Of a stretch of 24,000 nucleotides of DNA, positions 1,383 through 19,805 are shown piece by piece (positions within the stretch are counted from its first letter, which is position 1; each line of letters begins with the position of its first letter). Under the pieces are notes generated by a model that saw nothing but the letters and a program-made list of their open reading frames with translations, made no database searches and had not been told where the DNA came from. Position numbers and translations under genes: made by a program. Source of the DNA: Aquificaceae bacterium. Its GTDB lineage: Bacteria; Aquificota; Aquificia; Aquificales; Aquificaceae. Location: the NCBI GenBank assembly GCA_027079305.1, contig JALWVU010000030.1, forward strand, positions 23,922 through 47,921. The letters run 5' to 3'.

Positions 1383-2459
1383 TCATCTTACGGGTTTGGG
1401 AGTCTTGGGTGTGGAGGGAGGAAGAACGGGAACTTCCAGAGCCTCCTTGGGTATCTCGCCTTCGAGGGCTTTGAGGAAGGCTACTATCTTCTTCACCTGA
1501 TCCTTGGTAAGCTCTTTCCCGAGCTGGACCTTGGCCATCACCTGCACCGCATCTTCCAGGTTCCACACGGAGCCGTCGTGGAAGTAGGGGTATGTTCTGG
1601 TTACGTTCCTGAGGGATGGAACTTTGAAGACGTAGAGGTCCTCCTCCTTGTGGGTTACCGCGAACCTGCCCACGTCCATGGGCATGGTGGGCTTTTCTAA
1701 GGTTACATACTCCCTTGTGGCGTTCCAGTAAGCCTCCACTATACCGAACCTGGTGAACATCTTTCCTCCGAGGGCGGGGCCGTTATGACAGCTGGCGCAT
1801 CCCACCTCTATGAAGGTCTTCAGGCCCTCCTTCTCCTCCTTGGTAAGGGCGTTCAGATCACCCTTGAGGAATCTGTCGAACCTGGAGGGTGTCATCAGGG
1901 TTCTCTCGAAGGCGGCTATGGCCTTTGCCACGTTGTCGTAGTTGAGGGGGTTCTTCTCGCCCGGGAAGGCCTCCCTGAAGAGTTTCACATACTCGGGTAT
2001 GGAGCTGAGGCGCTTGACCACCTCCTCGGGAGAGTCCATGGCCATCTCGATGGGGTTGAGGATGGGACCTTTTGCCTGCTCCTCCACGTCCTTAGCCCTG
2101 CCGTCCCAGAACTGGGCCACGTGCAGAGCTGCGTTCAGCGTTGTGGGGGCGTTCCTGGGACCTATCTGCCACCTGTGCCCAACGGAGGTGGGAAGGTTGT
2201 CCACTCCGTAGGTGGCCAGGTTGTGGCAGGTGTTGCAGGATATGAGCCCGCTCTTGGAGAGCCTGGGATCGTAGTAGAGCATCTTCCCCAGCTTGACCTT
2301 GGCGGGTGTTACAGGATTCTCCTTGCTTTCAGCTACCTTGGGAAGGGGCCGGAAATACTTCCTCGCCTCCTCGAGGAGCTTCATGTCCTCCGACTTGCCC
2401 GCGCTCATCAGGAGCGCACCGCCGACAGCCACCGCCACCACCGCTACCGCTTTTCTCAT
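1383..2459 (-). CDS. ccp: Di-haem cytochrome c peroxidase (CCP/MauG family), secreted
   Basis: Two CxxCH haem motifs (CNTCHN, CASCHNG) and family-typical PRNAPT and FWDGRA motifs. The start is moved to ATG 2459 (MRKAVAVVAVAVGGALLMSA signal peptide), preceded by GGAGGTGA. The track start at 2498 adds 13 unlikely residues. Confidence 0.9.
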   Translation of the reverse strand: MRKAVAVVAVAVGGALLMSAGKSEDMKLLEEARKYFRPLPKVAESKENPVTPAKVKLGKMLYYDPRLSKSGLISCNTCHNLATYGVDNLPTSVGHRWQIGPRNAPTTLNAALHVAQFWDGRAKDVEEQAKGPILNPIEMAMDSPEEVVKRLSSIPEYVKLFREAFPGEKNPLNYDNVAKAIAAFERTLMTPSRFDRFLKGDLNALTKEEKEGLKTFIEVGCASCHNGPALGGKMFTRFGIVEAYWNATREYVTLEKPTMPMDVGRFAVTHKEEDLYVFKVPSLRNVTRTYPYFHDGSVWNLEDAVQVMAKVQLGKELTKDQVKKIVAFLKALEGEIPKEALEVPVLPPSTPKTPKPVR

Positions 2460-2485
2460 CTCTCTCACCTCCTGTATGTTATTAA

Positions 2486-2538
2486 ATTGCAATATCATTA
2501 TATACTAATTTGCAAATAATTCGCAAGTAATTCGGTTT
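2486..2538. promoter_or_regulatory. AT-rich divergent control region with TTGCAA-type palindromes and three tandem 11-bp units
   Basis: ATTGCAAT (2486-2493) and ATTTGCAAAT (2508-2517) are perfect palindromes. TAATTTGCAAA / TAATTCGCAAG / TAATTCGGTTT (2506-2538) repeat head to tail with an 11-bp period. The region lies between the divergent ccp and ATPase starts. Confidence 0.3.
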
Positions 2539-2559: not shown

Positions 2560-3741
2560 ATGCGGATCATACTCTTCTCCGGAAAGGGGGGCGTCGGAAA
2601 GACCACCATATCCGCCGCGACGGGATACAGGCTCTCGGAGCTGGGATACAGAACCATAGTGGTCTCTTTAGATCCTGCCCACTCCCTCGCGGACGCCTTC
2701 GACCTTCCCGAGGAGGAGAGACGCAGTGCAAAGGGACTTCCCGTGAAGATAAACGAGAGACTCCACATCCAGGAGATAGACATCCAGGAGGAAATAGACA
2801 GATACTGGGGAGACGTGTACAGGTTCCTGGAGATTCTCTTCAACACGACGGGGCTGGACGAGGTCCTCGCGGAGGAGCTGGCCATACTCCCTGGGATGGA
2901 GGAGGTCACGAGCCTCCTCTACGTGAACAAATACTACAGGGAGAAGGATTACGACGTTCTCGTTCTCGACCTCCCTCCCACGGGGGAGTCCCTGAGGTTC
3001 GTCTCCATGCCCACCGTCCTAAAGTGGTATATGAAGAAGATATTCAAGACGGAGCGCCTCGTGATGAAGGTGGCAAGACCCGTGGTGGGGAGGATCTCGG
3101 ACGTCCCCCTCCCCGACGAGTCCTACTTCAAGGCTCTGGAGAACTTCTACGAGAAGCTAAAGGGCGTGGACGAGATCCTCATAGATCCGGAGATAACCTC
3201 CGTAAGGCTCGTCTCCAATCCCGAGAAGATGGTGCTCAAAGAGAGCCAGAGGGCTTTCATGTACTTCAACCTCTTCGGGGTTAACGTGGACGCGGTCATA
3301 GTGAACAAGGTGATACCTCCCGAGGCGGGCGACTGCTCCTATCTCAGGAGCTGGATAGAGATCCAGAAGGGTTACGTGTCCGAGATAGAGAGCTACTTCT
3401 CGCCAGTTCCCGTCTTCAAGGTTCCCCTCCTTAAGGAGGAGGTCTTCGGTATCGAGAGGCTCAGGCTCCTTTCGGAGGTGATCTACGGAGAGAGGGATCC
3501 TTCCGAGGTCTTCTTCAGGGAGAGGCCCTACGAATTCATTCAGGAAGGGGAAGGGTATGTGATAAAGATAAGGGCGCCCTTTGTGAATAAGGAGAGCGTC
3601 TCCCTCCTGAAGGGTGAGGACGAGATAGTGGTGAGGGTGGGGAACTTCAAGAGCCACATAATGCTCCCGAGGAAGCTGAGGAACCTCGAGCCCGAGGGTG
3701 CGAGGATAGAGGGGGGATACATCTACGTCCGCCTAAGCTGA
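2560..3741 (+). CDS. ArsA/Get3-family P-loop ATPase (single ATPase domain) with a C-terminal HSP20/alpha-crystallin-like domain
   Basis: Deviant Walker A FSGKGGVGKTT and LDPAHSL. An LDLPPTGESLRF segment sits where ArsA has DTAPTGHTLRLL. The C-terminal ~75 aa (YVIKIRAPFVNKESVSLLKGEDEIVVRVGNFKSHIMLPRKL...ARIEGGYIYVRL) follow the small-HSP beta-sandwich pattern. Confidence 0.85.
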   Translation: MRIILFSGKGGVGKTTISAATGYRLSELGYRTIVVSLDPAHSLADAFDLPEEERRSAKGLPVKINERLHIQEIDIQEEIDRYWGDVYRFLEILFNTTGLDEVLAEELAILPGMEEVTSLLYVNKYYREKDYDVLVLDLPPTGESLRFVSMPTVLKWYMKKIFKTERLVMKVARPVVGRISDVPLPDESYFKALENFYEKLKGVDEILIDPEITSVRLVSNPEKMVLKESQRAFMYFNLFGVNVDAVIVNKVIPPEAGDCSYLRSWIEIQKGYVSEIESYFSPVPVFKVPLLKEEVFGIERLRLLSEVIYGERDPSEVFFRERPYEFIQEGEGYVIKIRAPFVNKESVSLLKGEDEIVVRVGNFKSHIMLPRKLRNLEPEGARIEGGYIYVRLS

Positions 3742-5442
3742 GAACTCCCTTATGGCCCTGCCTATGTCCGTCCTCGCTATTATCCCAACGAGCCTTCTGC
3801 TTCCCTTCTTGTCTACGACGGGTAGGCGTCCCACGCCCTTGGAGGTCATAAGCCTGAAGGCCTCCGCGAGGGTGGTCTCCGGGGTAACGGTGAGGAGATC
3901 GGTGCTCATGACCTCGTGAACCTTCCTGTCCTTTCTCTCGTGAGGAGGAACAGCCATCACGTCGCTCTTGGTTATTATCCCCACCAGCTTGCCTCCGTTC
4001 ACAACGGGCAGGCCCCCTATAAGGTTGTCCATCATCAATCTGTAGGCCTCCTCCACCGAGTCGTAGGGCCTGACGGTTATGGGCTCGCCCATGTAGTCTT
4101 TGACCTTCAGCTTCTCGAGGATCATAAGGCCCCACTCCTCCATGTGGGCGGGAGAGTCGAGACGGGTGTCCACCTGGCTGGGGAAGACACTTCTCTTACC
4201 GCTCAGGAAGTAGGAAATGGAGACGGAGACCATCGCGGGGACAAGAAGCTCGTAGCCTCCCGTCATCTCCGCTATGAGGATAAGGGTGGAGAGGGGAGCC
4301 TTGGCCGCCCCCGCAAAGAGGGAGACCATCCCCACTATGGTGAAGGAGGGCACGTGAAGGGAGAGGGAGTGGTGCTGATTCAGGGTCATGCTGTAGGCCG
4401 CTCCCACGAGCCCGCCTATCATCACCGAGGGACCGAAAACTCCTCCCGAGCCCCCCGATCCGAGGGTGAAGGAGACTCCCAGCATGACCGCAACTGCGCC
4501 GAGAACTATGAAGCCAAGATCCGTGAGCTTACCGTCCATTATGAGCTGGAGCCAGCCGTAGCCGTTCCCGATGGAAATGGGGATAAAGGCTCCCACGAGT
4601 CCGGCCAGAAAGCCTCCGAGGGCCGGCTTTATGTACTGGGGAACTCTGGGCTTTTTGAACTCCTCCTGCACCTTGAAGAAGAGGAAGGTGAAGACTCGGA
4701 CAACGAGGGCGCAGAGGAGGCCGAGCCCTGCGTAGGCCAGGAGGGAGGCAGGCTGGAGGTTCAAGAGCTTGGGTATCTCCGCGGAGAATATGGGCTGGAA
4801 GCCGAAGAACATTCCGAAGACGCTGTAGGAGGTAACGGAAGCTATGAAACCCGGGATCAGGGCTTCTATCTCGAAGTCCCTTTTGAAGAACACCTCCGCG
4901 CTGATTATGGCTCCCGCGAGGGGTGCCTTGAATATGGCCGCTATCCCCGCACCGAGGCCCACCGCGAGGGCGGTCCTCCTCTCCCTCCGGTCGAGTCTGA
5001 AGAGTTCTCCCACGGTCGAGCCTATCCCGGCACCTATGAGGGCTATGGGCCCTTCCCTTCCCGATGTTCCCCCCGTTCCTATGGTTATGGCGGAGGTTAT
5101 GAGCTTCACTATGGAGGATTTTATCGAGAGCTTATCCTTGCTGTGGTAAGCCCTTATGGCTGAGTCCGTCCCGACTCCCGCGGATTCGGGGGAGAGGAGG
5201 TATGTGAGAAGCCCTGAGATAAGTCCGCCGAGGGCAACGGTCAGGGGAAGGAGGTAGGGCCTCTCCGGGTAAAAGGTGAAGTTCTCCCTCGTGCCCTCCC
5301 CCGCGGGAAGGGGCTGGACGTATCCCACCGCAAGCTCCAGGACGTAGCGGGTTATTAGCTCTATGGCGTGGACGAAGAGGACAGCGGAGATTCCCGTGAG
5401 GACTCCTATGAGGATGGGCAGGAGGAGGTATCTTTTGAACAT
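3733..5442 (-). CDS. ClC-family chloride channel / H+-Cl- antiporter with a C-terminal CBS pair
   Basis: Selectivity-filter motifs GTSGREGP and GGVFGPS in a multi-TM hydrophobic body, plus two CBS-like repeats at the C-terminus (VRPYDSVEEAYRLM...GGLPVV, VTPETTLAEAFRLM...GRLPVV). The 3' end overlaps the ATPase gene by 9 nt. Confidence 0.92.
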   Translation of the reverse strand: MFKRYLLLPILIGVLTGISAVLFVHAIELITRYVLELAVGYVQPLPAGEGTRENFTFYPERPYLLPLTVALGGLISGLLTYLLSPESAGVGTDSAIRAYHSKDKLSIKSSIVKLITSAITIGTGGTSGREGPIALIGAGIGSTVGELFRLDRRERRTALAVGLGAGIAAIFKAPLAGAIISAEVFFKRDFEIEALIPGFIASVTSYSVFGMFFGFQPIFSAEIPKLLNLQPASLLAYAGLGLLCALVVRVFTFLFFKVQEEFKKPRVPQYIKPALGGFLAGLVGAFIPISIGNGYGWLQLIMDGKLTDLGFIVLGAVAVMLGVSFTLGSGGSGGVFGPSVMIGGLVGAAYSMTLNQHHSLSLHVPSFTIVGMVSLFAGAAKAPLSTLILIAEMTGGYELLVPAMVSVSISYFLSGKRSVFPSQVDTRLDSPAHMEEWGLMILEKLKVKDYMGEPITVRPYDSVEEAYRLMMDNLIGGLPVVNGGKLVGIITKSDVMAVPPHERKDRKVHEVMSTDLLTVTPETTLAEAFRLMTSKGVGRLPVVDKKGSRRLVGIIARTDIGRAIREFSA

Positions 5443-5460
5443 AAGTTAGAATTTTAACGG

Positions 5461-6531
5461 ATGCTGGAGATAGACGGCTCTCACGGAGAAGGCGGGGGCC
5501 AGGTGGTCAGAACCTGTCTGTTCCTCAGCACCGTTCTGAAGATCCCCGCGAGGATAAAGAATGTGAGGGTAAAGAGGGAGAGGCCCGGCCTCAGGAGACA
5601 GCACCTTCACATAATCAGGCTTCTCAAAAAGCTCGCCTCCGCGGAGGTCGAGGGGGACACCTTGGGCTCTACGGAGCTTACCTACGTTCCCGGTGAGCTG
5701 AGGCCGGGGAGCTACAGCGTTGACTTCGGAAGCGCGGGATCTATAAGCCTCTTCCTCCAGGCGGTTCTCCCCGTTTCCCTCTTCGTTCCCGGAAAGGTTG
5801 AGATAGAGATAGTGGGAGGGACGGAGGTTCCCATGAGTCCCACCGTAGACTGGGTCAGGTTCGTCTACCTTCCCCATATATCGGGGGTTGCCAGGTTCGT
5901 GAGGATAGAGGTGGTCAGAAGGGGCTACCGTCCCGCAGGAGGAGGTCTTGTAAGACTCACCGCGGAAGGCGGTCCTTCCGAAGAACTAAAGGATTTAAAA
6001 TCGGTGAGGGAGTTTTTAAAAGGGAGGCTAAGCCTTTTTAAAAGGAGGAGGGGGGAGATTAAAAGGCTCCACCTCCTCTCGGTGGCGGAGGAGAGGCTGA
6101 GGGAGAGGAGGGTTGTGGAGAGGCAGGTCAAAGGCGCTCTCGATCTCCTGAGGGAAAAGGGTCTTCCCGAGCCGGAGGTCTACAGGCAGTACGTGAAGAG
6201 CTTCTCCATAGGGACGAGCGTGACCATGTGGCTCGAGGACACGGAGGGGAACATAATGGGTGCGGACAGTCTGGGCGAGAAGGGAAAGCCCGCGGAGACC
6301 GTCGGAGGCGAGTGTGCCCAGAAGCTCTGGGAGGACTGGAGCTCTGGGGCGACGGTGGACAGACACCTGGCGGACCACCTCGTTCCCTGGCTGGGTCTTG
6401 CGGGAGGTTCTGTCAGGGTTCCCCTCTTTACGGGACATTTAGAGACGAACATCTGGGTCTGCGAGAGATTCCTGGGCGATGGGACCTTCAGGGTGGTGAG
6501 GGAGGAGGGGATCGTGGAGGCTGTGGTATAA
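5461..6531 (+). CDS. rtcA: RNA 3'-terminal phosphate cyclase (RtcA)
   Basis: N-terminal [31 protein letters not shown] and C-terminal [13 protein letters not shown] are characteristic of RtcA. The length of 356 aa fits. Confidence 0.92.
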
Positions 6532-6539
6532 TCTGGTAA

Positions 6540-9500
6540 ATGGAGATCATCGAAGTCCCCATAGAGGAAGAGGTAAAGCAGTCCTACATAGACTACGCCA
6601 TGTCCGTCATAGTGGGGAGGGCGATCCCCGACGTCAGAGACGGCCTCAAGCCCGTCCAGAGAAGGATACTCTACGCGATGTATGAGATGGGGCTCACTCC
6701 CGATAAGCCCTTCAAGAAGAGCGCGAGGATAGTGGGGGAGTGCTTCGTAAGGGGAACCAAGGTGGTTACCTCCGAAGGGATAAAGAACATAGAGGAGGTG
6801 GAGAGGGGCGATCTGGTTTACACTTCGAGAGGATTGAAGAGAGTTTCGGAGCTTTACGTTATGCCTCCCCAGCCCCTGAAGGAGGTGGTGGTCGATACGG
6901 GCCTGTCGGTAAGATGCACTCCTGGCCAGATGTTCAAGGTTCTGACTCCGGAAGGTGATCTGGTATGGAGGAGGGCCAAGGATCTTAAGGAGGGCGATTT
7001 CCTTCTGCTTAGGGGTGTCTTCCCTGAAGTGGAGAGCAGGATCAAGGTAGAAGGTGTGGAGATAGACGAGAGTCTTGCCTACCTGATAGGCCTGCTGGTC
7101 GGCGACGGCTGGGTTGAGAAAGACAGGCGTGGATACCACAGGGTGGGGCTGTTTATCTCGGACAAAAGGATGAGGGAGAGGGTAGAGAGTATACTTTCTT
7201 CGAAAGGCTTCAGCTTTTCGAGGTCCAAGGACGGCACCGTAAGACTCAACTCAAGAAACTCAAGGACCATCATCAGGATCCTCGAGGCGGATGAGAATCT
7301 AAGCGCAAAGACGAAAAGGATCCCGAGCTGGGTGTTTAAAGCTGATAGGGGGACGGTTCTGGCCTTTGTCTCCGGACTCATAGACTCAGACGGAAGCGTT
7401 CACAAGAGCAGGAACGTTATTACCTTCACTTCCGTCTCGAAGGAGCTTATCAGGGACCTTCAGATCCTCCTCTTCTACCTCGGCATCCCGGCCAGGGTCT
7501 ACACTCAGAGACCTAAGGGTAACAAGATCGGAGGAAGGGAAATAAGACCTAACTACGATACTCACACTCTCGAGATATCGGGACACTATGTGTTGAAGAT
7601 CTTCGCCTCTCCCGTATTGCCCGTTAAAGCGGAGCGCTTGTGCGGGGAAAGGATAACCAAGAGGGTTAAGGCGGATGTGGTGCCTTACATAGGAGGCCTG
7701 TTGCTGAAGGAGTTTTCAGAGAAACATATCGGAGGGGGCTGGTATCTTACGTCGGAAGGTAAAAAAGTTAGGTGCGGTATAAGGTATCCAACAGGAACGA
7801 AGATAAGGTATTCTGCGGATCTGAAGGAGAGGTTTATCCTCTACAAAACAGCTCTGGAAGACCTGAACATCTTAAATAAGGCCGAGCTCGTAGGCTCGAG
7901 GTATGCGAGGCTGCTGAAAGATACACTGGATAAGGGCTGGTTCTTCCTCAGGGTAAAGGAAGTTAAAGACGCTCCTCCCGAGGAGACCTACGACATACAG
8001 GTTGAGGAGGATCACGAGTTTCTGGCTAACGGCTTTGTAGTCCACAACTGCCTCGGAAAGTATCATCCCCACGGGGATCAGGCGGTCTACGACGCCCTCG
8101 TCAGGATGGCCCAGGATTTCTCCATGAGGTATCCCCTCATAATCGGGCAGGGGAACTACGGCTCGGTGGACGGGGACCCGCCGGCCCAGATGAGATACTG
8201 CGTAACGGAGGGCTCCCTCGTCCTGACGAAGAGGGGCCTAATCCCGATCGAGTCCATAGTTCCCGATTCTAAGGACTCCTCGGAGCACGAGATAGATCTG
8301 GAGGTTCTGTCTTTAAACGGGAAGATCAACAGAGCGGACAGATTCTTCAACTCGGGAAAGCATCCCACAATAAAGGTAAGGACCGCCACGGGTCTCGAGA
8401 TAGAGGGGAGCTACAACCATCCCCTTTTAACTCTCGTCAGAGGGGAAGGGGGCAGGCCCACCTACAGGTGGAAGACACTTGAGGAGCTACGGGAGGGGGA
8501 CTACATCGTTGTTGCCAGAGACTCTCAGCTCTTCCCCGATGAGGATCTCATAACGGAGGAGGAGGCCTTCCTTTTGGGAAGCTTCGTTAGTGAGGGATAC
8601 ATAAACGATGGAAGGGTTGGATTTTCTAATGTGAATACAGAGTTTGTGGAAGAGTTCGAAAGGTGTCTCTCGAAAGCTCATGCAGGTTCCTACTGCGCTT
8701 ACGAAAGAAAGCTAAGGAGCGGGAAAACGATAACCGAGTTCCAGATACACAGCAGAGAGTTTATAGAGCGCATAAAGGATCTTGGCTTCAACCACAAGGC
8801 TGGGGAGAAGGAGATCCCTCAGGTGGTCCTGAGATCCTCTAAAAGGGTCCAGAGGGCTTTCCTGAGGGCGCTCTTTGAAGGAGACGGGAGCGTAAGCAAG
8901 GTGGGCCAAACTGTTCTGGTCTTTTACCACTCCAAGAGCCTGAAGCTTATAAAACAGCTCCAGATAGTTCTCCTTAACTTCGGGATAGTGAGCAGGATCC
9001 ACAGGGACAGACATATATACAGGCTTCTGATAAGCGGTGCACACAACCTCAAGAAGTTCTCCGAAGAAATAGGCTTCGTAAGCGAGAAGCAGAAGAAGCT
9101 TGAAGAGTATCTGAAGGACTACGGAAAAGCCCTCAGCAGAACGGACAGGATACCTTTCCTATCGGAATACCTGAGAAGAAAATACAGGTTCAGGTTCAAC
9201 GAGTGGTTCGTAAAGCACAACCTCGACAGATACGAGAGCCTGGAAAGGTATATGCACGTCCTTGAAAAATACTTAGATGAAGAGGATCTAAGGCACGTAA
9301 AGGAGCTTCTCAGGAACAGGTACTTCTTCGATCAGGTTGTCTCCAAGGAGTTCGGGGGATACAAGACAGTCTACTCTATAAGGGTTCAGAGCAGGTGCCA
9401 CTCCTTCGTGGCTAACGGGATAATAAACCACAACACCGAAGCCAAGCTCTCCAAGATTGCGGTCGAGATGCTCGAGGACATAGACAAAGAAACGGTAGAC

Positions 9501-11426
9501 TTCGTCCCCAACTTCGACGAGTCCCTCACGGAGCCCACGGTCCTCCCCTCTAAGTTCCCCAACCTCCTCTGCAACGGGACCGCGGGTATAGCGGTGGGGC
9601 TGGCGACCTCCATACCACCCCATAACCTGAGGGAGGTGGGGAAGGCCCTGATAGAGCTTGCCAAGAACCCCAACATGACCACCGAGGAGATCCTCCAGAT
9701 CATAAAGGGCCCTGACTTCCCCACGGGAGGGGTTGTGGAGAACGCCAAGGACCTTAAGGAGATCTACGAGACGGGGAGGGGAACGATACAGGTCAAGGCC
9801 AAGGCCCACGTGGAGAAGGTCCAGGGGGGAAGGGAGCAGATCGTGGTCTCGGAGATCCCCTACCAGGTGAACAAGGCGGAGCTCATAAAGAAGATAGCGG
9901 ACAACGTGAGAAGCGGGAGGCTCAAGGAGATCTCGGACATAAGGGACGAGTCGGACAAGGAGGGGATAAGGATAGTCATAGAGCTCAAGAGGGAGGCAAA
10001 GGGGGAGAAGGTCCTGAAAAAACTCTTCAAATACACCCAGCTCAGGAAAGGCTTTCCCGTTAACCTTGTGGTCCTCGTGAACGGGGAGCCGAAGCTGGTG
10101 GGCATAAAGGAGCTTCTGAGGGAGTTCATAAGGCACAGGCTCGAGGTTATCCTGAGGAGAACCAGGTTCTTCCTGAGAAAGGCGGAGGACAGGCTCCACG
10201 TGGTTCAGGGGCTCCTGATAGCGATAAACAACCTGGACGAGGTGATAGAGGGGATAAGGAAATCAAAGGATCCCGCGGAAGCGAGGGATATGCTCCAGGC
10301 GCGCTTCGGTCTGACCGAGAGGCAGGCCCAGGCGGTTCTGGATCTCAGGCTCCACAGGCTCACCTCCCTCGAGAGGGACAGACTAAGGCAGGAGGAGGCG
10401 GATCTGCTCCAGAAGATCGATTACTACCGAAAGGTGATAGGTAGCGAGGAGGAGAGGATAAGGATCTTTATAGAGGAGACGCAGGAGCTTGTAAAGAAAT
10501 ACGGAGATCCCAGGAGGACTTTCATAGAGGGCCTCGAAGGAGAGCTGGAGGAGGGATCCCTTGTGGTCACCGTATTGGAGAACGGGAAGGTAATTCCCCT
10601 CGAAGAGATGCCCGAGGGCGAGGCTCCCGTTGTGGACATCCTCGACGTTCCCTTCACCGAAGGTCTTTTCCTGGTCTCCAACAGGGGAAGGGTCTACTGG
10701 CTGGCGGGCTCTCAGGCCCTGAGGGGTAGCAGGGTCCACTTCAAGGAGTCTGAAGAGAGGATAGTGGGGGCCTTCATAAGGGAGCAGTTCGCGGACAGGC
10801 TTCTCCTCGCCACCAGAAACGGGATGATAAAGAAGATCCCCCTCGTTGAGTTCGAATACAAGGCCCAGGGGATGAGGATAATAAAGCTGGCTGAGGACGA
10901 CGAGGTGGTGGGCATAGCCCAGTCCATAGATATGAGCGACGTCCTCGTCTTCACCAGAAGAGGTAAGGTGGCCAGGTTCAACGTGAGGGAGATACCTCCC
11001 GCCACCCCCGGGACCAAGGGGGCCCAGGGCATAAAGCTCGAGGAGAGCGACGAGGTGGTGGGGATAAGGATAATCAGGGAAGAGCCCTTCCTGATAGTGG
11101 TGACGCCCGACGGGAAGGCCAAGAGGATATACCAGGAAGAGGTTCCCGTCAGGAACAGGGGAGTAAAAGGGGTTGGTGTTCTCGGCTCTGCGAGGGAGAG
11201 GTTGATAGACCTGCTTCCCATAAAGGAAGAGCTCGAGGTGTTGGTGAGCACCAAGCTCGGTAAGGCCTTTTACGACAGGATAAGGGCCGGGGACGTCCCC
11301 CTCACCAAGAGGGACAGGCTCGCCAGGCCCAGGTGGGATCTGGAGGAGGGAGACGAGATCAGGAGGGTCGTTATAAAGTCCGAGGTAAAAGAGGATGAGG
11401 AGAGTCAGAATTCTGATCAAGCCTAA
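6540..11426 (+). CDS. gyrA: Type IIA topoisomerase subunit A (GyrA/ParC family) precursor interrupted by two inteins; predicted spliced product 780 aa
   Basis: Exteins match GyrA closely: [32 protein letters not shown], [10 protein letters not shown], [45 protein letters not shown]. The 1628-aa ORF is about twice normal GyrA length, and the excess is explained by two intein insertions. Confidence 0.95.
6741..8048 (+). mobile_element. Intein 1 (436 aa) with a LAGLIDADG homing-endonuclease domain, inserted just upstream of the GKYHPHGD helix
   Basis: Begins with Cys ([10 protein letters not shown]) right after ARIVGE. Ends in VVHN followed by +1 Cys ([10 protein letters not shown]). Two dodecapeptide motifs are present: [14 protein letters not shown] and [14 protein letters not shown]. 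Removing it restores a contiguous GyrA sequence. Confidence 0.9.
8199..9434 (+). mobile_element. Intein 2 (412 aa) with a LAGLIDADG endonuclease domain, inserted immediately after the catalytic Tyr (MRY|C...HN|TEA), the site used by mycobacterial GyrA inteins
   Basis: Starts [13 protein letters not shown] and ends [10 protein letters not shown] with +1 Thr. Block B is [10 protein letters not shown]. Dodecapeptide motifs are [12 protein letters not shown] and [12 protein letters not shown]. Long stretches resemble the M. xenopi GyrA intein as I recall it (IDLxVL...ADRxFxSGxHP...VRT..GL...G...NHPLL.LV). Confidence 0.93.
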
Positions 11427-14025: not shown

Positions 14026-15393
14026 ATGGTCAGCATACTGGTTGTGGAGGACGACGAGAGCCTGAGTTCCCTCATAGGGAGAAAATTGAAGAGGAAGGGC
14101 TTCAGGGTTGATGCGGTCGGAAGCGGTGAGGAAGCCAAAGAGCTTATAGAAAAAGGAAACTACGACGTGGTCCTTCTGGATATAAAACTCTCGGATATGA
14201 ACGGCCTCGACCTTCTTAAAGAGATTTCGGGGAGGACCAATGCCAAGTTCATAGTGATAACGGGATATGGGGATGTAAGCACCGCGGTGGAGGCCATGAA
14301 AGCGGGAGCGTCAGACTTCATCCAGAAACCCTTCTCCTTCGACATCCTGGAGGTAAGCATAGAGAAGGCCCTTAAAGAGAAGCGTCTCGAGGAAGAGAAC
14401 AAAGCTCTCAAGAGCTTCCTCTTCGACAAGGAGCACGAGATAGTCCTCGAGACCAGAAGTCCCCTCTTTAAAAACATACTTCAGATGATAGAGGGAGCGG
14501 CCAGAAGTGACATAAACATACTTCTGAGAGGGGAGACGGGAACGGGTAAGGAGGTCCTCGCCAGATACATCCACAGGATATCTGACAGAAGGGATAAGCC
14601 CTTCATCGTGGTGGACTGCGGGGCCATACCCGAGCACCTCTTCGAGAGCGAGCTATTCGGCCACGAGAGAGGGGCCTACACGGGAGCCACGAGTAGGAAG
14701 CTGGGTCTGGTGGAGCTTGCGGACGGAGGGACGCTCTTTCTGGACGAGATAGGGGAGATACCCCTGCCCGTTCAGGCTAAACTCCTGAGGTTCGTGGAGA
14801 CGAGGAGGTTCAGGAGGGTGGGAGGCCTCAAGGAACACAGGGTGGACGTGAGGATAATCTCCGCCACCAACAGGGATCTTAAGGAGATGGTGAGGAAGGG
14901 AGAGTTCAGGAGCGATCTTCTTTACAGGATAAACACCTTTGAGGTGGAGATACCGCCCCTGAGGGAAAGGAAGGAGGACATTCCCCTTCTTGTAGAAACC
15001 TTTCTGAGGAGATACAGGAAGAGGATCAAAAAGGAGACACTCAAAAAGCTCACGGCCTACGACTGGCCGGGGAACGTAAGGGAGCTAAGAAACGCTATAG
15101 AGAGGGCTTCGCTCCTTTCTAAAGGAGAGTATATAGACGAGAACCTCTGCCTTCCTTCGGGGGAGAGCAAGGAAGCCTGCATGGAAAATATCTTCTCCGC
15201 TATGCCCTCCCTGAAAGATCTCGAACTTCTCTACACCGCCTACCTATACAGGAAGCTGGGAAGTGTGGACAAGGTTGCTAAGGTGCTGGGGTGTAGCAGG
15301 AGGACCGTTTTCAGAAAGCTCAGAGAACTAAGAGAGAGGAATGGAAACTTTGAAGGTAGCCCCTTCTCCCAACTTGGTGTCCACAGAGATTGA
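14026..15393 (+). CDS. Sigma-54-dependent two-component response regulator (NtrC family): receiver + AAA+ + Fis-type HTH
   Basis: Receiver domain (ILVVEDDE...VVLLDIKLSDMNG). AAA+ domain with Walker A GETGTGKE, the sigma-54 contact loop ESELFGHERGAYTGA (GAFTGA variant) and DEIGEIP. C-terminal HTH is VAKVLGCSRRTVFRKLRE. Confidence 0.93.
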   Translation: MVSILVVEDDESLSSLIGRKLKRKGFRVDAVGSGEEAKELIEKGNYDVVLLDIKLSDMNGLDLLKEISGRTNAKFIVITGYGDVSTAVEAMKAGASDFIQKPFSFDILEVSIEKALKEKRLEEENKALKSFLFDKEHEIVLETRSPLFKNILQMIEGAARSDINILLRGETGTGKEVLARYIHRISDRRDKPFIVVDCGAIPEHLFESELFGHERGAYTGATSRKLGLVELADGGTLFLDEIGEIPLPVQAKLLRFVETRRFRRVGGLKEHRVDVRIISATNRDLKEMVRKGEFRSDLLYRINTFEVEIPPLRERKEDIPLLVETFLRRYRKRIKKETLKKLTAYDWPGNVRELRNAIERASLLSKGEYIDENLCLPSGESKEACMENIFSAMPSLKDLELLYTAYLYRKLGSVDKVAKVLGCSRRTVFRKLRELRERNGNFEGSPFSQLGVHRD

Positions 15394-16347
15394 GCCACCG
15401 TACTCTCTCACTATACTGTCCACGATAGCAAGACCAAGGCCAGAGCCTTCTTTCTTGTTCTTTCCCTGATAGAAAGGTATGAATATCTTACTGAGCTCCT
15501 CCTGATCTATCCCCGGGCCCCTGTCACTCACCTCGAGAACCCACCTGCCCTCTTCGTTGTAAAGCTTGACCTCCACCTTCTCCCCCGGAGGAGAAGCCTG
15601 AACCGCGTTCAGGACGAGGTTGAGAACGAGGTGCCTTATGTCCGCTTCGTTCCCCATCTGGTAGCCCACCTCTTCGAGGTCCGTTTCTATCTTCACACCC
15701 TTCTCCTTCGCGTATATCCTTAAGATGTCTACCGAGTCTTCTACAGCCTTTCTCACGTTCACAAGATCTTTGGTGGAGTTTCTCTTGACGAGGAATAAGA
15801 GCTTATCCACATAGTCCCTGCAGGTTTTTACAGCGTTCCTTATGGTTTCTATCTCCTCAGAGCTCCCCACCTTCTCCTCCAGCTCCTCAAGAGCAAGCAG
15901 GATGGTGCTGAGGGGGGTGTTTATCTGATGGGCTACACCCAGAGCGAGAAATCCCACAGAACTTAGCCTCTGAGCCAGACTGAAGAGGTAGTACTTCTCC
16001 TTGTCGCTCTTTATATCCCTTATTATCTGAACTATCTTTTCCCCGTTCTCTATGGGAAAGGCGCATATCTCTACGGGAACTTCCCTGTTGTCGTGGGTGT
16101 AGTGGGTGTGAACCACGTTCACAGATCTTCCCGTCCTCTCTATCTCCTTCAAGGGACAGGGATGGCACTCCCCTTCACAGGGCTTTGTCTGATGATGGGA
16201 GACAACGTAGCAGAAGTTGCCTATGACCTCTTTGGGATCTTTGTATCCGAGATCCTTGGCGTACTTTTCGTTAGCGTAGACTATCCTGTAGTTTTTGTCT
16301 ATTATGACAACCTCTTCTTCAAACTGGTCGAATACGGAGAAGTCCAT
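15328..16347 (-). CDS. Soluble sensor histidine kinase with an N-terminal Cys-rich PAS domain
   Basis: No hydrophobic TM segment. PAS-like N-terminus (VVIIDKNYRIVYANEKYAKDLGY) carries C-x10-C-x3-C-x2-C. H-box is GVAHQINTPLS. The HATPase_c domain has N/G boxes (LVLNAVQA, DRGPGI, GSGLGLAIV). The 3' end overlaps the regulator gene by 66 nt. Confidence 0.9.
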   Translation of the reverse strand: MDFSVFDQFEEEVVIIDKNYRIVYANEKYAKDLGYKDPKEVIGNFCYVVSHHQTKPCEGECHPCPLKEIERTGRSVNVVHTHYTHDNREVPVEICAFPIENGEKIVQIIRDIKSDKEKYYLFSLAQRLSSVGFLALGVAHQINTPLSTILLALEELEEKVGSSEEIETIRNAVKTCRDYVDKLLFLVKRNSTKDLVNVRKAVEDSVDILRIYAKEKGVKIETDLEEVGYQMGNEADIRHLVLNLVLNAVQASPPGEKVEVKLYNEEGRWVLEVSDRGPGIDQEELSKIFIPFYQGKNKKEGSGLGLAIVDSIVREYGGSISVDTKLGEGATFKVSIPLS

Positions 16348-16476: not shown

Positions 16477-16492
16477 TGGCATGAATTTTGCT
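16477..16492 (+). promoter_or_regulatory. Sigma-54 (-24/-12) promoter for the flavoprotein-Rieske-flavoprotein operon
   Basis: TGGCAT-GAATT-TTGCT matches the TGGCAC-N5-TTGCW consensus with exact spacing. It lies about 40 nt upstream of ATG 16533, next to a sigma-54 activator gene. Confidence 0.7.
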
Positions 16493-16532: not shown

Positions 16533-17837
16533 ATGGAAGTGAGCAGGAGAGACCTGCTAAAGGTAGCGGGAGTGGGAGCGGCGGTAGCCGCAACAAGTGG
16601 AGCTACAAGCTTTACCTTTGCCAAAAGTGTGGATACCATCAACCTTCCCAAGCCCTCGAGAGGTTCCGCGAGGGTAGTTATAGTCGGAGGCGGATGGTCA
16701 GGATCCACGCTTGCCAAATACATTAAGAAGAAGGATCCAAACATAGACGTGGTCCTTATCGAAAAAAACAACGTGTTCATGTCCTGCCCGGTGAGTAACC
16801 TCTGGCTTGTTGACCTCGTAGATCTCGAGTTCCTCATTCATGACCACCTGAAAGCCGCGGACAAGTACGGATACCACTTCATCAACGCGGAGGTCCACGA
16901 CGTTGATAGAAAAAGAAGATACGTCTATACAAGCATAGGCAAGATACATTATGACTACCTCGTTCTCGCTACCGGAATAGACTACGACTACTCCCAGTGG
17001 GTGGGGGACGATCCGAAGGACATAGAGATAGCGATGAAGAAGTATCCCGCAGCCTTCAAACCCGGAGAGGAGCACTTCAGACTGAAAAGAAAGATACAGG
17101 ACTTCGAGGAAGGAAACTTCGTAATAACAGTTCCTCCCGGACTCGACTACAGATGTCTGCCAGGGCCTTACGAAAGGGCTACCATGATAGCCTGGTATTT
17201 CAAGCAGAACGAGATACCTGGAAAGGTTATCCTTCTCGATCCACACAACGATCCACCGGTCAAGGCGGAAGGCTTCCACAAGGCATGGGATGAGTTTGTT
17301 AAGGGATATGTGGAGTACTACCCTCAGACTCAGATAAAGCATGTGGATTTTGGAAAGAAAAGGATAGTTACCAATCTTGGAGACTTCGAGTTTGATGATC
17401 TCAACCTATACCCGAGATGTAAGTCCGCACCTCTCGTTTATAAACTCGGGCTGGTGCCCAAGGGGGACAGATGGCCCTCCCTCAAATGGCCCTGGTACAT
17501 GTCCACAGTGGACGAAAGGATATTCTGCACAGGGGATGCAAGGAACCATCCTTTCTCCAAGAGCGGAAACACCGCCAACTCGGAAGCTCACAACGTTGCG
17601 GAGCTTATCGTAACCTTGATACACGGAAAGAGCATGCCCTACAAACCTCCCAGAACCCTCTGTTACTCCGGGGTGGACAAAGGTAAGGCGGTCTGGGTAG
17701 ATCTGACCTACAAATACGATCCTAAAAAGAACAGCTTTGCCTTCCACAACGTTAAGATGGACAACAATCCTTCTTCTAAAAACTGGAAGGCTTACCTCGA
17801 ATGGGCCAAGGCTATGTACAGAGACATGTTCAGCTGA
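16533..17837 (+). CDS. Tat-exported FCSD/FccB-family FAD flavoprotein, paralog 1 (sulfide-dehydrogenase-like)
   Basis: Twin-arginine signal MEVSRRDLLKVAGVGAAVAA. Dinucleotide fold VVIVGGGWSGSTLAKY. FccB-type motifs MSCPVSN, YRCLPGPYERA and SKSGNTANSEA. Start chosen at ATG 16533 (GGAGGG 7 nt upstream) because the track's TTG 16488 lies inside the -12 promoter element. Confidence 0.85.
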   Translation: MEVSRRDLLKVAGVGAAVAATSGATSFTFAKSVDTINLPKPSRGSARVVIVGGGWSGSTLAKYIKKKDPNIDVVLIEKNNVFMSCPVSNLWLVDLVDLEFLIHDHLKAADKYGYHFINAEVHDVDRKRRYVYTSIGKIHYDYLVLATGIDYDYSQWVGDDPKDIEIAMKKYPAAFKPGEEHFRLKRKIQDFEEGNFVITVPPGLDYRCLPGPYERATMIAWYFKQNEIPGKVILLDPHNDPPVKAEGFHKAWDEFVKGYVEYYPQTQIKHVDFGKKRIVTNLGDFEFDDLNLYPRCKSAPLVYKLGLVPKGDRWPSLKWPWYMSTVDERIFCTGDARNHPFSKSGNTANSEAHNVAELIVTLIHGKSMPYKPPRTLCYSGVDKGKAVWVDLTYKYDPKKNSFAFHNVKMDNNPSSKNWKAYLEWAKAMYRDMFS

Positions 17838-17848
17838 CGGAGGAAAGT

Positions 17849-18565
17849 ATGGACAGGAGGGGTTTCATAAAGACGTGCACTGCCGTTGCCGCCGCTTCCC
17901 TCGCTTCCCCCTCCTTTTTTATAAGCTCCTTGAGGGCACAGGAGGTAGAGTTCAAAGCCTACAAAAAAGCTATCCTTCTGAAGAAGGACGGAACGCCTCT
18001 TAGACCTGAGGATATAGATCCGGGGAAGCAATACATTTTCTTTTATCCCCATAGGGCTACACCCTGCATACTGGCAAACCTTGGAAAGGAAGTTCCGCCC
18101 GCGGATGTAAAGCTATCCGATGGAACCACCTACAGATGGCCCGGGGGAGTTGGACCGAAAAAGAGCATAGTAGCCTACTGTGCAATATGTCCCCATCAGA
18201 TGAGTTATCCTACGCCGGAATACTCTTTCATCAATTACTATCCCGAGAATATCCTTTCCAAGATAGTCAAGAGAGGAGGGGTGATCCAGTGCTGTGCGCA
18301 CCTTTCTGTTTTCGATCCCGCAAAGGGAGGAGAGGTTATAGACGGACCTGCTCCCCAACCGCTCACCGCCATAGTCCTAAAATACGAAGGCGGTAAACTC
18401 TACGCTGTAGGGACACTGGGAAAGGAACTTTACGAGGACTTCTTCGATGTTTTTAAACCTGACCTCAGGAAACTTTACAAGTCCTCGAGGAAGGCTAAGA
18501 AGCTTGTGGACAAGTGTGAGGTTGTAGAGGTGGAAGAGTATGCAAAAGAGGTCATCAGGTGTTAG
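17849..18565 (+). CDS. Tat-exported Rieske-type [2Fe-2S] protein
   Basis: Twin-arginine signal MDRRGFIKTCTAVAAASLA. Rieske ligand boxes are CPH (in YCAICPHQ) and CCAH, followed by LSVFDPAKGGEVIDGPAPQPL, typical of the Rieske fold. Start moved to ATG 17849 (GGAGG 5 nt upstream). Confidence 0.8.
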   Translation: MDRRGFIKTCTAVAAASLASPSFFISSLRAQEVEFKAYKKAILLKKDGTPLRPEDIDPGKQYIFFYPHRATPCILANLGKEVPPADVKLSDGTTYRWPGGVGPKKSIVAYCAICPHQMSYPTPEYSFINYYPENILSKIVKRGGVIQCCAHLSVFDPAKGGEVIDGPAPQPLTAIVLKYEGGKLYAVGTLGKELYEDFFDVFKPDLRKLYKSSRKAKKLVDKCEVVEVEEYAKEVIRC

Positions 18566-19805
18566 CAGGAGAGGGCTTTTGGCCCTGGGAGGAGTTCTTC
18601 TCGCGAGCGGTGTAATAGCTAAAAGCACTTCAAGGTTGCTTCCTCCCTCTAAGGGGAACAGGGTAGTTATAGTAGGGGGAGGCTACGGAGGTGTTACCGC
18701 GGCCAAATACATAAAAAAGGAAAATTCAGACGCGGAAGTCGTGCTTATAGAGAAGAACCAGCTCTTCGTATCCTGCCCTCTGAGCAATCATTATCTTGTA
18801 GGGCTTATAGATTACGGTCAGTTATGCTTTCCCTACAACAGACTCCATACCAAATACGGTGTTAAGGTTATAAACGATGTGGTAGTAGATATAGATCTCC
18901 CCAAAAGGAGAGTATACCTATCGGACGGCTACGTTGATTACGATTACCTTATTCTTTCACCGGGTATAGAGTATGACACCGAGGAGTTTCCCTTCTACGA
19001 GGAAACCACCTGGTTCTTTCCGGGTGCCTTCAGGCCGGGGAGTGAACATCTATACCTGAGAAGACTTCTCGAGGAGTTCGAAGGTGAGAGCATAGTTATA
19101 ACGGTTCCCAGGATGCCCTACAGGTGTCCTCCCGCTCCTTACGAGAGGGCGTCTCTGATCCTCAGCTATATAAGGGAAAACGGCCTTAAAGCCCATATGT
19201 ATTTTCTTGACGCGAACGAGTATCCCCCCGTTCTTAGGGATGGCTTCATGAAGGCTTACGAGGACTTTTACAGGGGAATGGCCACCTACATAACCGGAGT
19301 TCGAATAAAGGATGTAGACGTAGCTTCGAGGAAGATAAAGACAAACAAAGGAGATGTAAGGTTTGATTTCGGATCGATAATACCGCCCATGAGAGCACCC
19401 AAACTCCTTGAGAGAATAGGCCTGATATACGGAAGGGAAAAGTGGGTAAGAGTAGATCCCATGACCTTTGAGACCAAGGTCAAAAACGTTTTTGTGATAG
19501 GGGACTCCTGTGAGTCCTATCTCCCCAAAAGCGGATACGCCGCTAACTCTCAGGCTAAGGTCGTCGCCAGGATAGTTTCAAGCAGAATAAAAGGTAAGGA
19601 ATTTGGGGGAGAGCTTATCCAGCACGGTGTCTGCTACGCCATGGTGAACTTAAAGTCCGCCATAATGCTCGAGGTGGAATACAAATACAATGTAAGAACT
19701 AAACAGATAAACAAGATCCTCAGGGAGGATAACACCTGGAAAGTTTCTACCGCCAAGAGATACTATGAGTGGGCGAGGGGTCTGTGGAGGGATATGTTCT
19801 TCTGA
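18540..19805 (+). CDS. Tat-exported FCSD/FccB-family FAD flavoprotein, paralog 2
   Basis: Twin-arginine signal SRRGLLALGGVLLASG. VVIVGGGYGGVTAAKY, VSCPLSN, YRCPPAPYERA, VIGDSCESYLPKSGYAANSQAKV. It aligns with paralog 1 along its whole length, including the shared C-terminal EWA+xx+RDMF motif. The start overlaps the Rieske gene by 26 nt, with GAGGTGG upstream. Confidence 0.88.
   Translation: MQKRSSGVSRRGLLALGGVLLASGVIAKSTSRLLPPSKGNRVVIVGGGYGGVTAAKYIKKENSDAEVVLIEKNQLFVSCPLSNHYLVGLIDYGQLCFPYNRLHTKYGVKVINDVVVDIDLPKRRVYLSDGYVDYDYLILSPGIEYDTEEFPFYEETTWFFPGAFRPGSEHLYLRRLLEEFEGESIVITVPRMPYRCPPAPYERASLILSYIRENGLKAHMYFLDANEYPPVLRDGFMKAYEDFYRGMATYITGVRIKDVDVASRKIKTNKGDVRFDFGSIIPPMRAPKLLERIGLIYGREKWVRVDPMTFETKVKNVFVIGDSCESYLPKSGYAANSQAKVVARIVSSRIKGKEFGGELIQHGVCYAMVNLKSAIMLEVEYKYNVRTKQINKILREDNTWKVSTAKRYYEWARGLWRDMFF

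Follow-up and report, generated by a model that had tools for sequence, protein, structure and literature searches.

Periplasmic sulfide oxidation is exemplified by FccAB (1fcd, 5n1t, 3vrd), a flavocytochrome c sulfide dehydrogenase (FCSD). Its flavoprotein, exported via the twin-arginine translocation (Tat) pathway, carries a cysteine that binds flavin adenine dinucleotide (FAD) and a pair of redox cysteines, and its small redox partner, a mono- or di-heme cytochrome c, is encoded in the same operon. To our knowledge, every FCSD enzyme described biochemically either has a c-type cytochrome partner or is a lone flavoprotein. Here, we describe a locus from an Aquificaceae bacterium in which a gene for a Rieske-type [2Fe-2S] protein lies between two genes for FCSD-like flavoproteins, FC1 and FC2. 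The locus is part of a stretch of 24,000 nucleotides (GenBank assembly GCA_027079305.1, contig JALWVU010000030.1, positions 23,922 to 47,921 of the forward strand), the whole of which we call the window; positions below are counted from its first letter.

Three other described systems are informative for this locus. First, AioB (1g8k_B, 8rtl_B, 4aay_B) is a Tat-exported, soluble-type Rieske protein that takes electrons one at a time from a larger, catalytic subunit and delivers them to cytochromes or cupredoxins of the periplasm, and we propose the same role for the Rieske protein here. However, the partner of AioB is a Mo/[3Fe-4S] enzyme, whereas the neighbors here are flavoproteins and no AioA gene adjoins. 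Second, Sulfolobus acidocaldarius Rieske protein II, SoxF (1jm1), shares with our protein a long insertion and sequence beyond the conserved core; SoxF and SoxL are part of archaeal quinol-oxidizing cytochrome b complexes, but no cytochrome b gene is a neighbor here.

Third, the same arrangement, dhsU1-Rieske-dhsU2, was noted by Tamazawa et al. 2012 in a Sulfurihydrogenibium-like "large sausage-shaped bacterium" (PMC3504083). DhsU1, the upstream flavoprotein in Sulfurihydrogenibium-type clusters, has experimentally demonstrated sulfide:cytochrome c reductase activity, dhsU2 could not be expressed, and the Rieske open reading frame (ORF) was mentioned but never analyzed or expressed (PMC3504083). 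Our literature searches returned no other treatment of the Rieske protein or of the arrangement. The components and the published gene order are already known, while the pairing of the Rieske protein with FCSD-like flavoproteins, a cysteine triad, and an integral C-terminal element are uncharacterized.

The three genes are as follows.

17849-18565, plus strand: Rieske-type [2Fe-2S] protein gene, 238 amino acids (aa) and a TAG stop, identified from ORF, Pfam, NCBIfam, and structure evidence
16533-17837, plus strand: FC1, the upstream FCSD-like flavoprotein, with the Tat signal MEVSRRDLL and the FccB cysteines in sCPvSN, yRClPGPYERA, and lCYS
18540-19805, plus strand: FC2, the downstream FCSD-like flavoprotein of the DhsU2-type clade, identified from its domains and the twin-arginine motif SRRGLL

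An earlier note on this DNA, made from the sequence alone, had placed the Rieske gene between two FCSD-like genes. Domain searches agree, in that both flanking proteins contain FCSD_central (E = 7e-24 and 1e-21) and FCSD-flav_bind domains, and both have twin-arginine signals. FC1 matches solved FccB chains, 5n1t_A and 1fcd_A among them, over nearly its full length (E = 3e-49 to 1e-40), and its alignment to FccB shows the FAD-binding cysteine and both redox-active cysteines to be present. By inspection, FC2 has the same three motifs (SCPLSN, RCPPAPYERA, and VCYAM). From these motifs, FC1 and FC2 appear catalytically competent.

Conserved gene order, sampled in a one-genome-per-species scan that yielded 80 loci and no fewer than 596 matching stretches in total, links the Rieske protein to the flavoproteins. 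Of 41 Aquificota loci, 39 have an FCSD-like gene right beside the Rieske gene; in the remaining two, the available sequence opens with the Rieske gene itself, and the upstream flank is missing. The flavoproteins fall into four clades, and members of each keep the same place with respect to the Rieske gene. Those of a Thermocrinis-type clade (25 loci) are invariably found upstream, and those of the FC1 clade (8 loci, the window included) directly upstream. In the FC2/DhsU2 clade (23 loci), the position is always downstream, and the flavoprotein gene begins before the Rieske gene ends in all but one locus (22/23), typically with an overlap of 22 nucleotides (nt). The fourth, a DhsU1-type clade of the Hydrogenothermaceae, has a cytochrome c gene upstream in three of its four loci, as checked by Pfam in two of them.

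The Hydrogenothermaceae layout can be written as [cytochrome c - DhsU1-type flavoprotein][Rieske - DhsU2-type flavoprotein]. In this layout, the Rieske gene holds the position of the cytochrome gene relative to the downstream flavoprotein, in keeping with the suggestion in the earlier note that it stands in the cytochrome subunit's place. FC2 is about 50% identical to the clade found at the dhsU2 position in these loci. In the published dhsU cluster (PMC3504083), unlike in ours, dhsU1 is preceded by a cytochrome c gene and sox genes follow downstream, and FC1 comes from a different clade than the upstream flavoprotein there.

In the window's FCSD-Rieske cluster, searches found no gene for an FccA-type or other c-type cytochrome and no ORF with a CxxCH motif; the only heme protein of the window is a di-heme peroxidase 14 kb away. 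Outside the Hydrogenothermaceae, a CxxCH ORF lies within 4.5 kb in only two Aquificota loci, several kilobases off in both. The minimal form of the unit occurs in Thermocrinis albus, where a flavoprotein gene and the Rieske gene, separated by 9 nt, stand among housekeeping genes. Unlike in FccAB, a single Rieske gene is accompanied by one to three flavoprotein paralogs, and the number varies between close relatives. For instance, the two closest relatives (L009, positions 4287-8954, and L010; Rieske proteins 95% identical) have the order Thermocrinis-type flavoprotein, FC1, Rieske, FC2; in the window, by contrast with this three-paralog row, a histidine kinase gene is directly upstream of FC1. 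The link between Rieske and FCSD-like genes recurs in Campylobacterota. In three of the four loci of one Campylobacterota clade, which lacks the cysteines C10, C149, and C238 described below, a small secreted ORF of 134 to 142 aa with a single CxxCH directly follows the Rieske gene (L004, 8754-9158; L048, 7753-8181; L049, 1055-1483). The CxxCH of the L048 ORF is near the C terminus, reminiscent of class II cytochromes c. These ORFs have no Pfam match and are hence putative cytochromes; the small protein may be the next electron carrier in this clade.

We propose, and think it reasonably probable, that the protein is a "flavo-Rieske," the dedicated one-electron acceptor of the FC1 and FC2 sulfide dehydrogenases, acting in the role of FccA. 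The earlier note had suggested an electron acceptor for the two flavoproteins, or a bridge to a membrane complex, and both the conserved gene order and the cytochrome-free cluster bear out the link with the flavoproteins. We infer cluster binding, formation of a complex with the flavoproteins, and the following direction of electron flow. Sulfide would reduce the Cys-Cys/FAD center of the flavoprotein, and the FAD would then hand single electrons to a cluster held by C114, H116, C148, and H151. A long insertion between the two ligand boxes and an ordered C-terminal extension of 48 aa would pack around the cluster-binding loops, with a disulfide between C149 and C238 stapling the tail onto box II. 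Once reduced, the Rieske protein would donate to a soluble acceptor in the periplasm that is encoded elsewhere and is probably a cytochrome c, from which electrons would pass to a terminal oxidase. The present analysis shows the fold, ligand motifs, export signal, gene order, operon signals, and pattern of cysteine conservation to which this scheme appeals.

The relevant parts of the Rieske gene are these.

17849-17941, plus strand: Tat signal peptide, about residues 1-31 (MDRRGFIKTC...SSLRA), from TIGR01409 and the invariance of R3-R4
18188-18196, plus strand: ligand box I, C114-P-H116, with C114 and H116 invariant in 234/234 full-length homologs
18197-18289, plus strand: inter-box spacer of 31 residues, QMSYPTPEYSFINYYPENILSKIVKRGGVIQ, with a near-invariant P121...S126-F-I-x-Y130 motif, modeled at a predicted local distance difference test (pLDDT) score of 93-96
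18290-18301, plus strand: ligand box II, C148-C149-A-H151, with C148 invariant in 234/234 homologs and H151 in 142/142 of the CCxH subgroup
18419-18562, plus strand: C-terminal extension, residues 191-238, ending in Cys238 (18560-18562), with F199 invariant and Y231 near-invariant

The 238-aa ORF is genuine, and its translation equals the protein quoted in the earlier note. An ATG at 17801 opens the mechanically called ORF; the real start is at 17849, because all homologs begin with M-x-R-R, and a GGAGG ribosome-binding site lies 6 nt before it. The protein has its own Tat signal, as had been read from the sequence: TIGR01409 scores 19.3 bits against a cutoff of 16.7, and the family shows no variation at R3 or R4. 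A signal-peptidase site of the L-x-A type is likely near residues 28-30, to judge by the sequence there.

One feature of the signal peptide invites another reading. Cys10 (17876-17878), within RRGFIKTC, is a cysteine in 217 of 222 CC-type sequences, a degree of conservation that is surprising for a presumably cleaved segment. The uncleaved Tat signal, with Cys10 retained, might therefore anchor the Rieske protein, and with it the flavoproteins, on the periplasmic side of the membrane, where the protein would serve as a tethered adaptor feeding a membrane complex. Rieske proteins of the bc1 type are anchored in this manner by uncleaved Tat signals, and residues 3-29 are modeled as helices. We consider this reading improbable, as the hydrophobic stretch is short, is broken by a conserved proline, and is followed by a signal peptidase I-type L-x-A; in addition, no gene for a membrane complex was found in the cluster, and model confidence is low over the N-terminal region that is modeled as helical (pLDDT 49-63 for residues 1-30). 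A separate idea, that Cys10 is a lipobox cysteine, was rejected, because its distance from the RR pair is only 5 residues, its immediate context is I-K-T-C, and the hydrophobic region comes later in the sequence.

Returning to the proposed acceptor itself, its identity as a Rieske protein is well supported. The ligand boxes C-P-H and C-C-A-H, first read by eye, were confirmed at the codon level, and H151 is conserved in all 154 members of the CCxH and CxxH groups. The downstream motif, H-x-S-x-F-D...GPAPxPL, is canonical, as the earlier note had held, with G166, P167, P171, and L172 invariant in the family. In a hidden Markov model search, which that note had recommended, PF00355 met its gathering threshold, at a borderline 20.8 versus 20.3 bits because the 31-residue insertion splits the match. 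Among solved structures, a sequence search picked out chains of AioB and SoxF (E = 4e-9 to 1e-8), with AioB the best match in sequence and fold (E = 4e-9) and SoxF second. The AlphaFold model, for which 23 homologs were used, has a mean pLDDT of 90.2 (95-98 across the mature domain) and superposes on AioB with a template-modeling (TM) score, normalized to the target, of 0.76-0.80; SoxF and the Thermus Rieske protein also match. On the evidence of sequence and model, this is a Tat-exported, Rieske-fold protein that is built like AioB and SoxF and has a predicted [2Fe-2S] cluster.

Resemblance does not extend to membership in a named family. The earlier note had asked about clustering with AioB-like and other Tat-exported Rieske proteins; AioB and SoxF are indeed the nearest solved relatives, but the protein falls below the cutoffs of both the AioB and the SoxL2 families. 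Membership in AioB was rejected on a TIGR02694 score of 50.4 bits against a cutoff of 95.65, together with the absence of an adjoining AioA molybdopterin/[3Fe-4S] gene. Membership in SoxL2 was likewise rejected (TIGR03171, 90.1 against 582.1 bits), although this is the best NCBIfam match (E = 1.3e-25), its best-scoring stretch being Rieske residues 3-136. Membership in the bc1/b6f type (PetA/QcrA) was rejected at 13.8 versus 97.4 bits for TIGR01416 and 18.5 versus 275 bits for NF050121, and because no cytochrome b gene turned up among the window ORFs of at least 120 aa that were scanned.

Because AioB chains are the closest solved relatives, the protein could instead be a small subunit of the AioB type, or else a periplasmic electron shuttle of general use, whose true partner, for example a molybdoenzyme or a membrane cytochrome b, is encoded elsewhere, in which case FCSD adjacency would reflect co-regulation. 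Some sources label homologs "arsenite oxidase small subunit," and proteobacterial homologs are found beside moaA, fdhD, and mobA or near genes for a molybdopterin oxidoreductase and cytochrome b. We hold this alternative to be unlikely. Beyond the TIGR02694 score, no cytochrome b or molybdopterin-family gene was found among the scanned ORFs of at least 120 aa in the 24-kb window, the Aquificota adjacency comes with very short gaps or overlaps across four flavoprotein clades, and the two-gene unit of T. albus stands alone among housekeeping genes.

Published work on bc1 and AioB mutants ties the cluster's potential to the positions equivalent to Ser163 and Tyr165 of bc1. Here, the first is kept as Ser153 and the second is replaced by Phe155. 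By analogy, this combination suggests an intermediate redox potential, comfortably above that of a flavin, for the proposed acceptor.

The spacer between the boxes is exactly the 31 residues that the earlier note had counted. Rieske spacers of bc1, b6f, and dioxygenases are 15 to 17 residues long, and alignment gives 15 for AioB, so the claim of a roughly doubled length stands. The length is uncommon but has a precedent, and its novelty was overstated, since the insertion of SoxF has 27 residues and a long spacer is a family-wide trait: across 234 full-length homologs, it ranges from 22 to 37 residues, with 31 in most Aquificota and 29-30 or 36 in Proteobacteria. Strands are modeled at residues 128-131 and 145-148. 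Because of its near-invariant motif and confident modeling, we read the spacer as a functional element, not a loose loop.

The cysteines tell a less conventional story. The earlier note had pointed to an extra cysteine at each box, in CAIC and CC, and to a possible stabilizing disulfide between them. Both cysteines are present in this sequence, but Cys111 is not a conserved feature: of 234 homologs, 165 have Ser at this position and just 44 have Cys. Nor does it show pairing with C223 or any other cysteine; the proposed disulfide is thus not upheld. The canonical Rieske disulfide (box I +5, box II +2) is also absent. These positions are Ser119 and Ala150, and cysteine is not among their commonest residues in any subgroup. 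SoxF, unlike our protein, keeps the canonical CPCH/CxHxGC cysteines, while NT-26 AioB resembles it in lacking the canonical disulfide.

Attention therefore turns to C149, in box II, and C238, the last codon before the TAG as confirmed at the codon level. Among the 234 full-length homologs, both residues occur in 220 and both are missing from 12; the remaining two are exceptions in appearance only, with a cysteine 4-5 residues from the end. The C-terminal extension that ends in C238 is, as described earlier, highly charged (48% K/R/E/D), but it is 48 aa long rather than about 70. It is ordered in the AlphaFold model (pLDDT 95-98). AioB has neither this extension nor the C149/C238 pair. Covariation, measured as mutual information with average product correction (MI-APC) over 133 effective sequences, ranks C149-C238 11th among all pairs. 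Furthermore, the final ten residues have all their best-scoring partners in box II (Q147, C149, L152, and V154), and H151 covaries with residues 203-208 of the extension. Of 151 registers considered for the tail, antiparallel 386/387 came first (z = 3.3), and a parallel one at offset 85, onto residues 144-153, scored equally. Covariation thus supports box II, at about residues 144-154, as the partner region of the tail, with the exact register left unsupported by mutual information. Most likely, C149 and C238 would form a non-canonical disulfide that staples the C-terminal tail onto box II and replaces the canonical one.

The same cysteines could mean something more active. The protein may combine electron transfer with thiol-based sulfur chemistry, with C149/C238 redox-active, possibly together with C10, and sulfane sulfur or persulfide taken from the flavoprotein, or electron transfer gated by a thiol/disulfide switch. 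Sulfur-carrier proteins such as SoxY and DsrC recurrently end in cysteine, the setting is one of sulfide oxidation, and the tail covaries with box II right beside the ligand H151. In addition, the cysteines are strictly conserved over about 40-95% identity and are lost together: the 12 sequences that lack the C149/C238 pair have V, A, T, or I in place of Cys10. However, the tail is ordered in the model rather than a mobile arm, the pair persists in proteobacterial homologs without an FCSD-like neighbor and is to that extent untied to sulfide dehydrogenases, and a structural disulfide in place of the missing canonical one is the simpler account. We consider a part in sulfur chemistry decidedly unlikely, and the more specific picture of C10, C149, and C238 as a thiol device on the Rieske cluster, coupling electron transfer to persulfide or sulfane-sulfur handling or to gating, we would put forward as little more than a long shot. 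We know of no described precedent, and found none, for a combined sulfur and electron carrier among Rieske proteins.

Several observations weigh against the role of dedicated acceptor that we favor, or against the staple that forms part of it. No FCSD-like neighbor was found in any of 36 Beta- and Gammaproteobacteria loci (0/36), which means that the tie to FCSD does not hold for the entire family, and its proteobacterial members lie near genes for Mo-cofactor synthesis or Mo-enzymes and for cytochromes. The clustering of ORFs in these neighborhoods is noisy in high-GC DNA and is used only qualitatively. Recombinant DhsU1 alone, as a monomer, reduces horse heart cytochrome c with sulfide (PMC3504083), and for this reason a Rieske partner is not strictly required in vitro. 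Because all three proteins carry Tat signals of their own, export as a preassembled complex is not implied either. As for the staple, a neighbor-joining tree with Fitch parsimony puts the 12 sequences without the pair in a single clade and counts one change, and a reading as many independent events of covariation was rejected on that ground; C149 and C238 were lost together just once and are strictly conserved elsewhere. Clade structure of this kind can inflate mutual information, and the parallel and antiparallel tail registers, as noted, score equally.

Operon signals accompany the conserved gene order. The FC1 stop and the Rieske ATG are 11 nt apart, and the 5' end of FC2 overlaps the end of the Rieske gene by 26 nt. 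Three features upstream of FC1 suggest how these genes are controlled.

14026-15393, plus strand: sigma-54-dependent response regulator, with a receiver domain and Sigma54_activat
15328-16347, minus strand: PAS-domain histidine kinase, paired with the sigma-54 regulator
16477-16492, plus strand: promoter-like element of the sigma-54 -24/-12 type, TGGCATGAATTTTGCT, with the FC1 ATG following after about 40 nt

FC1 probably starts at ATG 16533. This is a better choice than the mechanically called TTG at 16488 because it has a GGAGG site and the TTG falls inside the promoter element. Within the window alone, the number of sigma-54 motifs is at chance level. In 13 related loci, comparable elements are located 10-55 nt upstream of the first FCSD-like gene, and exactly these 13 loci have orthologs of the kinase and the activator immediately upstream. 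The response regulator is likely the activator of the operon. In this lineage, FC1, the Rieske gene, and FC2 would thus form one sigma-54-dependent operon under the adjacent kinase/activator pair. Scans for simple terminators and for sigma-70 promoters around the operon gave results at chance level. The PAS region in the N-terminal ~70 residues of the kinase contains a C-x10-C-x3-C-x2-C motif (CYVVSHHQTKPCEGECHPC), which could serve in metal or cluster binding or in the sensing of sulfide or redox state.

The Rieske family to which this protein belongs is large. Searches returned 1,265 matches and 145 clusters at 50% identity with E < 1e-30, and their annotation is only generic. In proteobacterial branches (L001-L003, L005-L006, and L050-L088), His151 of box II is replaced by Glu. 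Most Burkholderiales-labeled loci have CCSEH, with a His one residue later, and most Gammaproteobacteria-labeled loci have CCSE[K/R/N/G], with no His and a 36-residue spacer. As read from these sequences, the loss of His151 could mean non-canonical ligation or loss of the cluster.

Elsewhere in the window, gyrA (6540-11426, plus strand) encodes a GyrA of 1,628 aa in which domains for intein splicing and a LAGLIDADG homing endonuclease, each matched in two stretches, break up the DNA_topoisoIV domain and gyrase C-terminal repeats; one or two inteins are suggested. About 14 kb upstream of the cluster are the genes for the di-heme cytochrome c peroxidase (CCP_MauG; 1383-2498, minus strand) and an ArsA-type anion-transporting ATPase (2560-3741, plus strand). 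Beyond the cluster itself, the window has no further redox- or metalloid-related genes, and nothing ties these two to the cluster.

The FCSD-Rieske module is small and self-contained and has an obvious substrate, which makes the proposal directly testable. Both the variation at a ligand position (His151 to Glu) and the non-canonical cysteine pair bear on how the potential and stability of Rieske proteins are tuned. If the proposal is true, a Rieske-dependent FCSD would be a third architecture for periplasmic sulfide oxidation, and it would help to account for how electrons from sulfide enter the respiratory chains of thermophilic Aquificota and some Campylobacterota.

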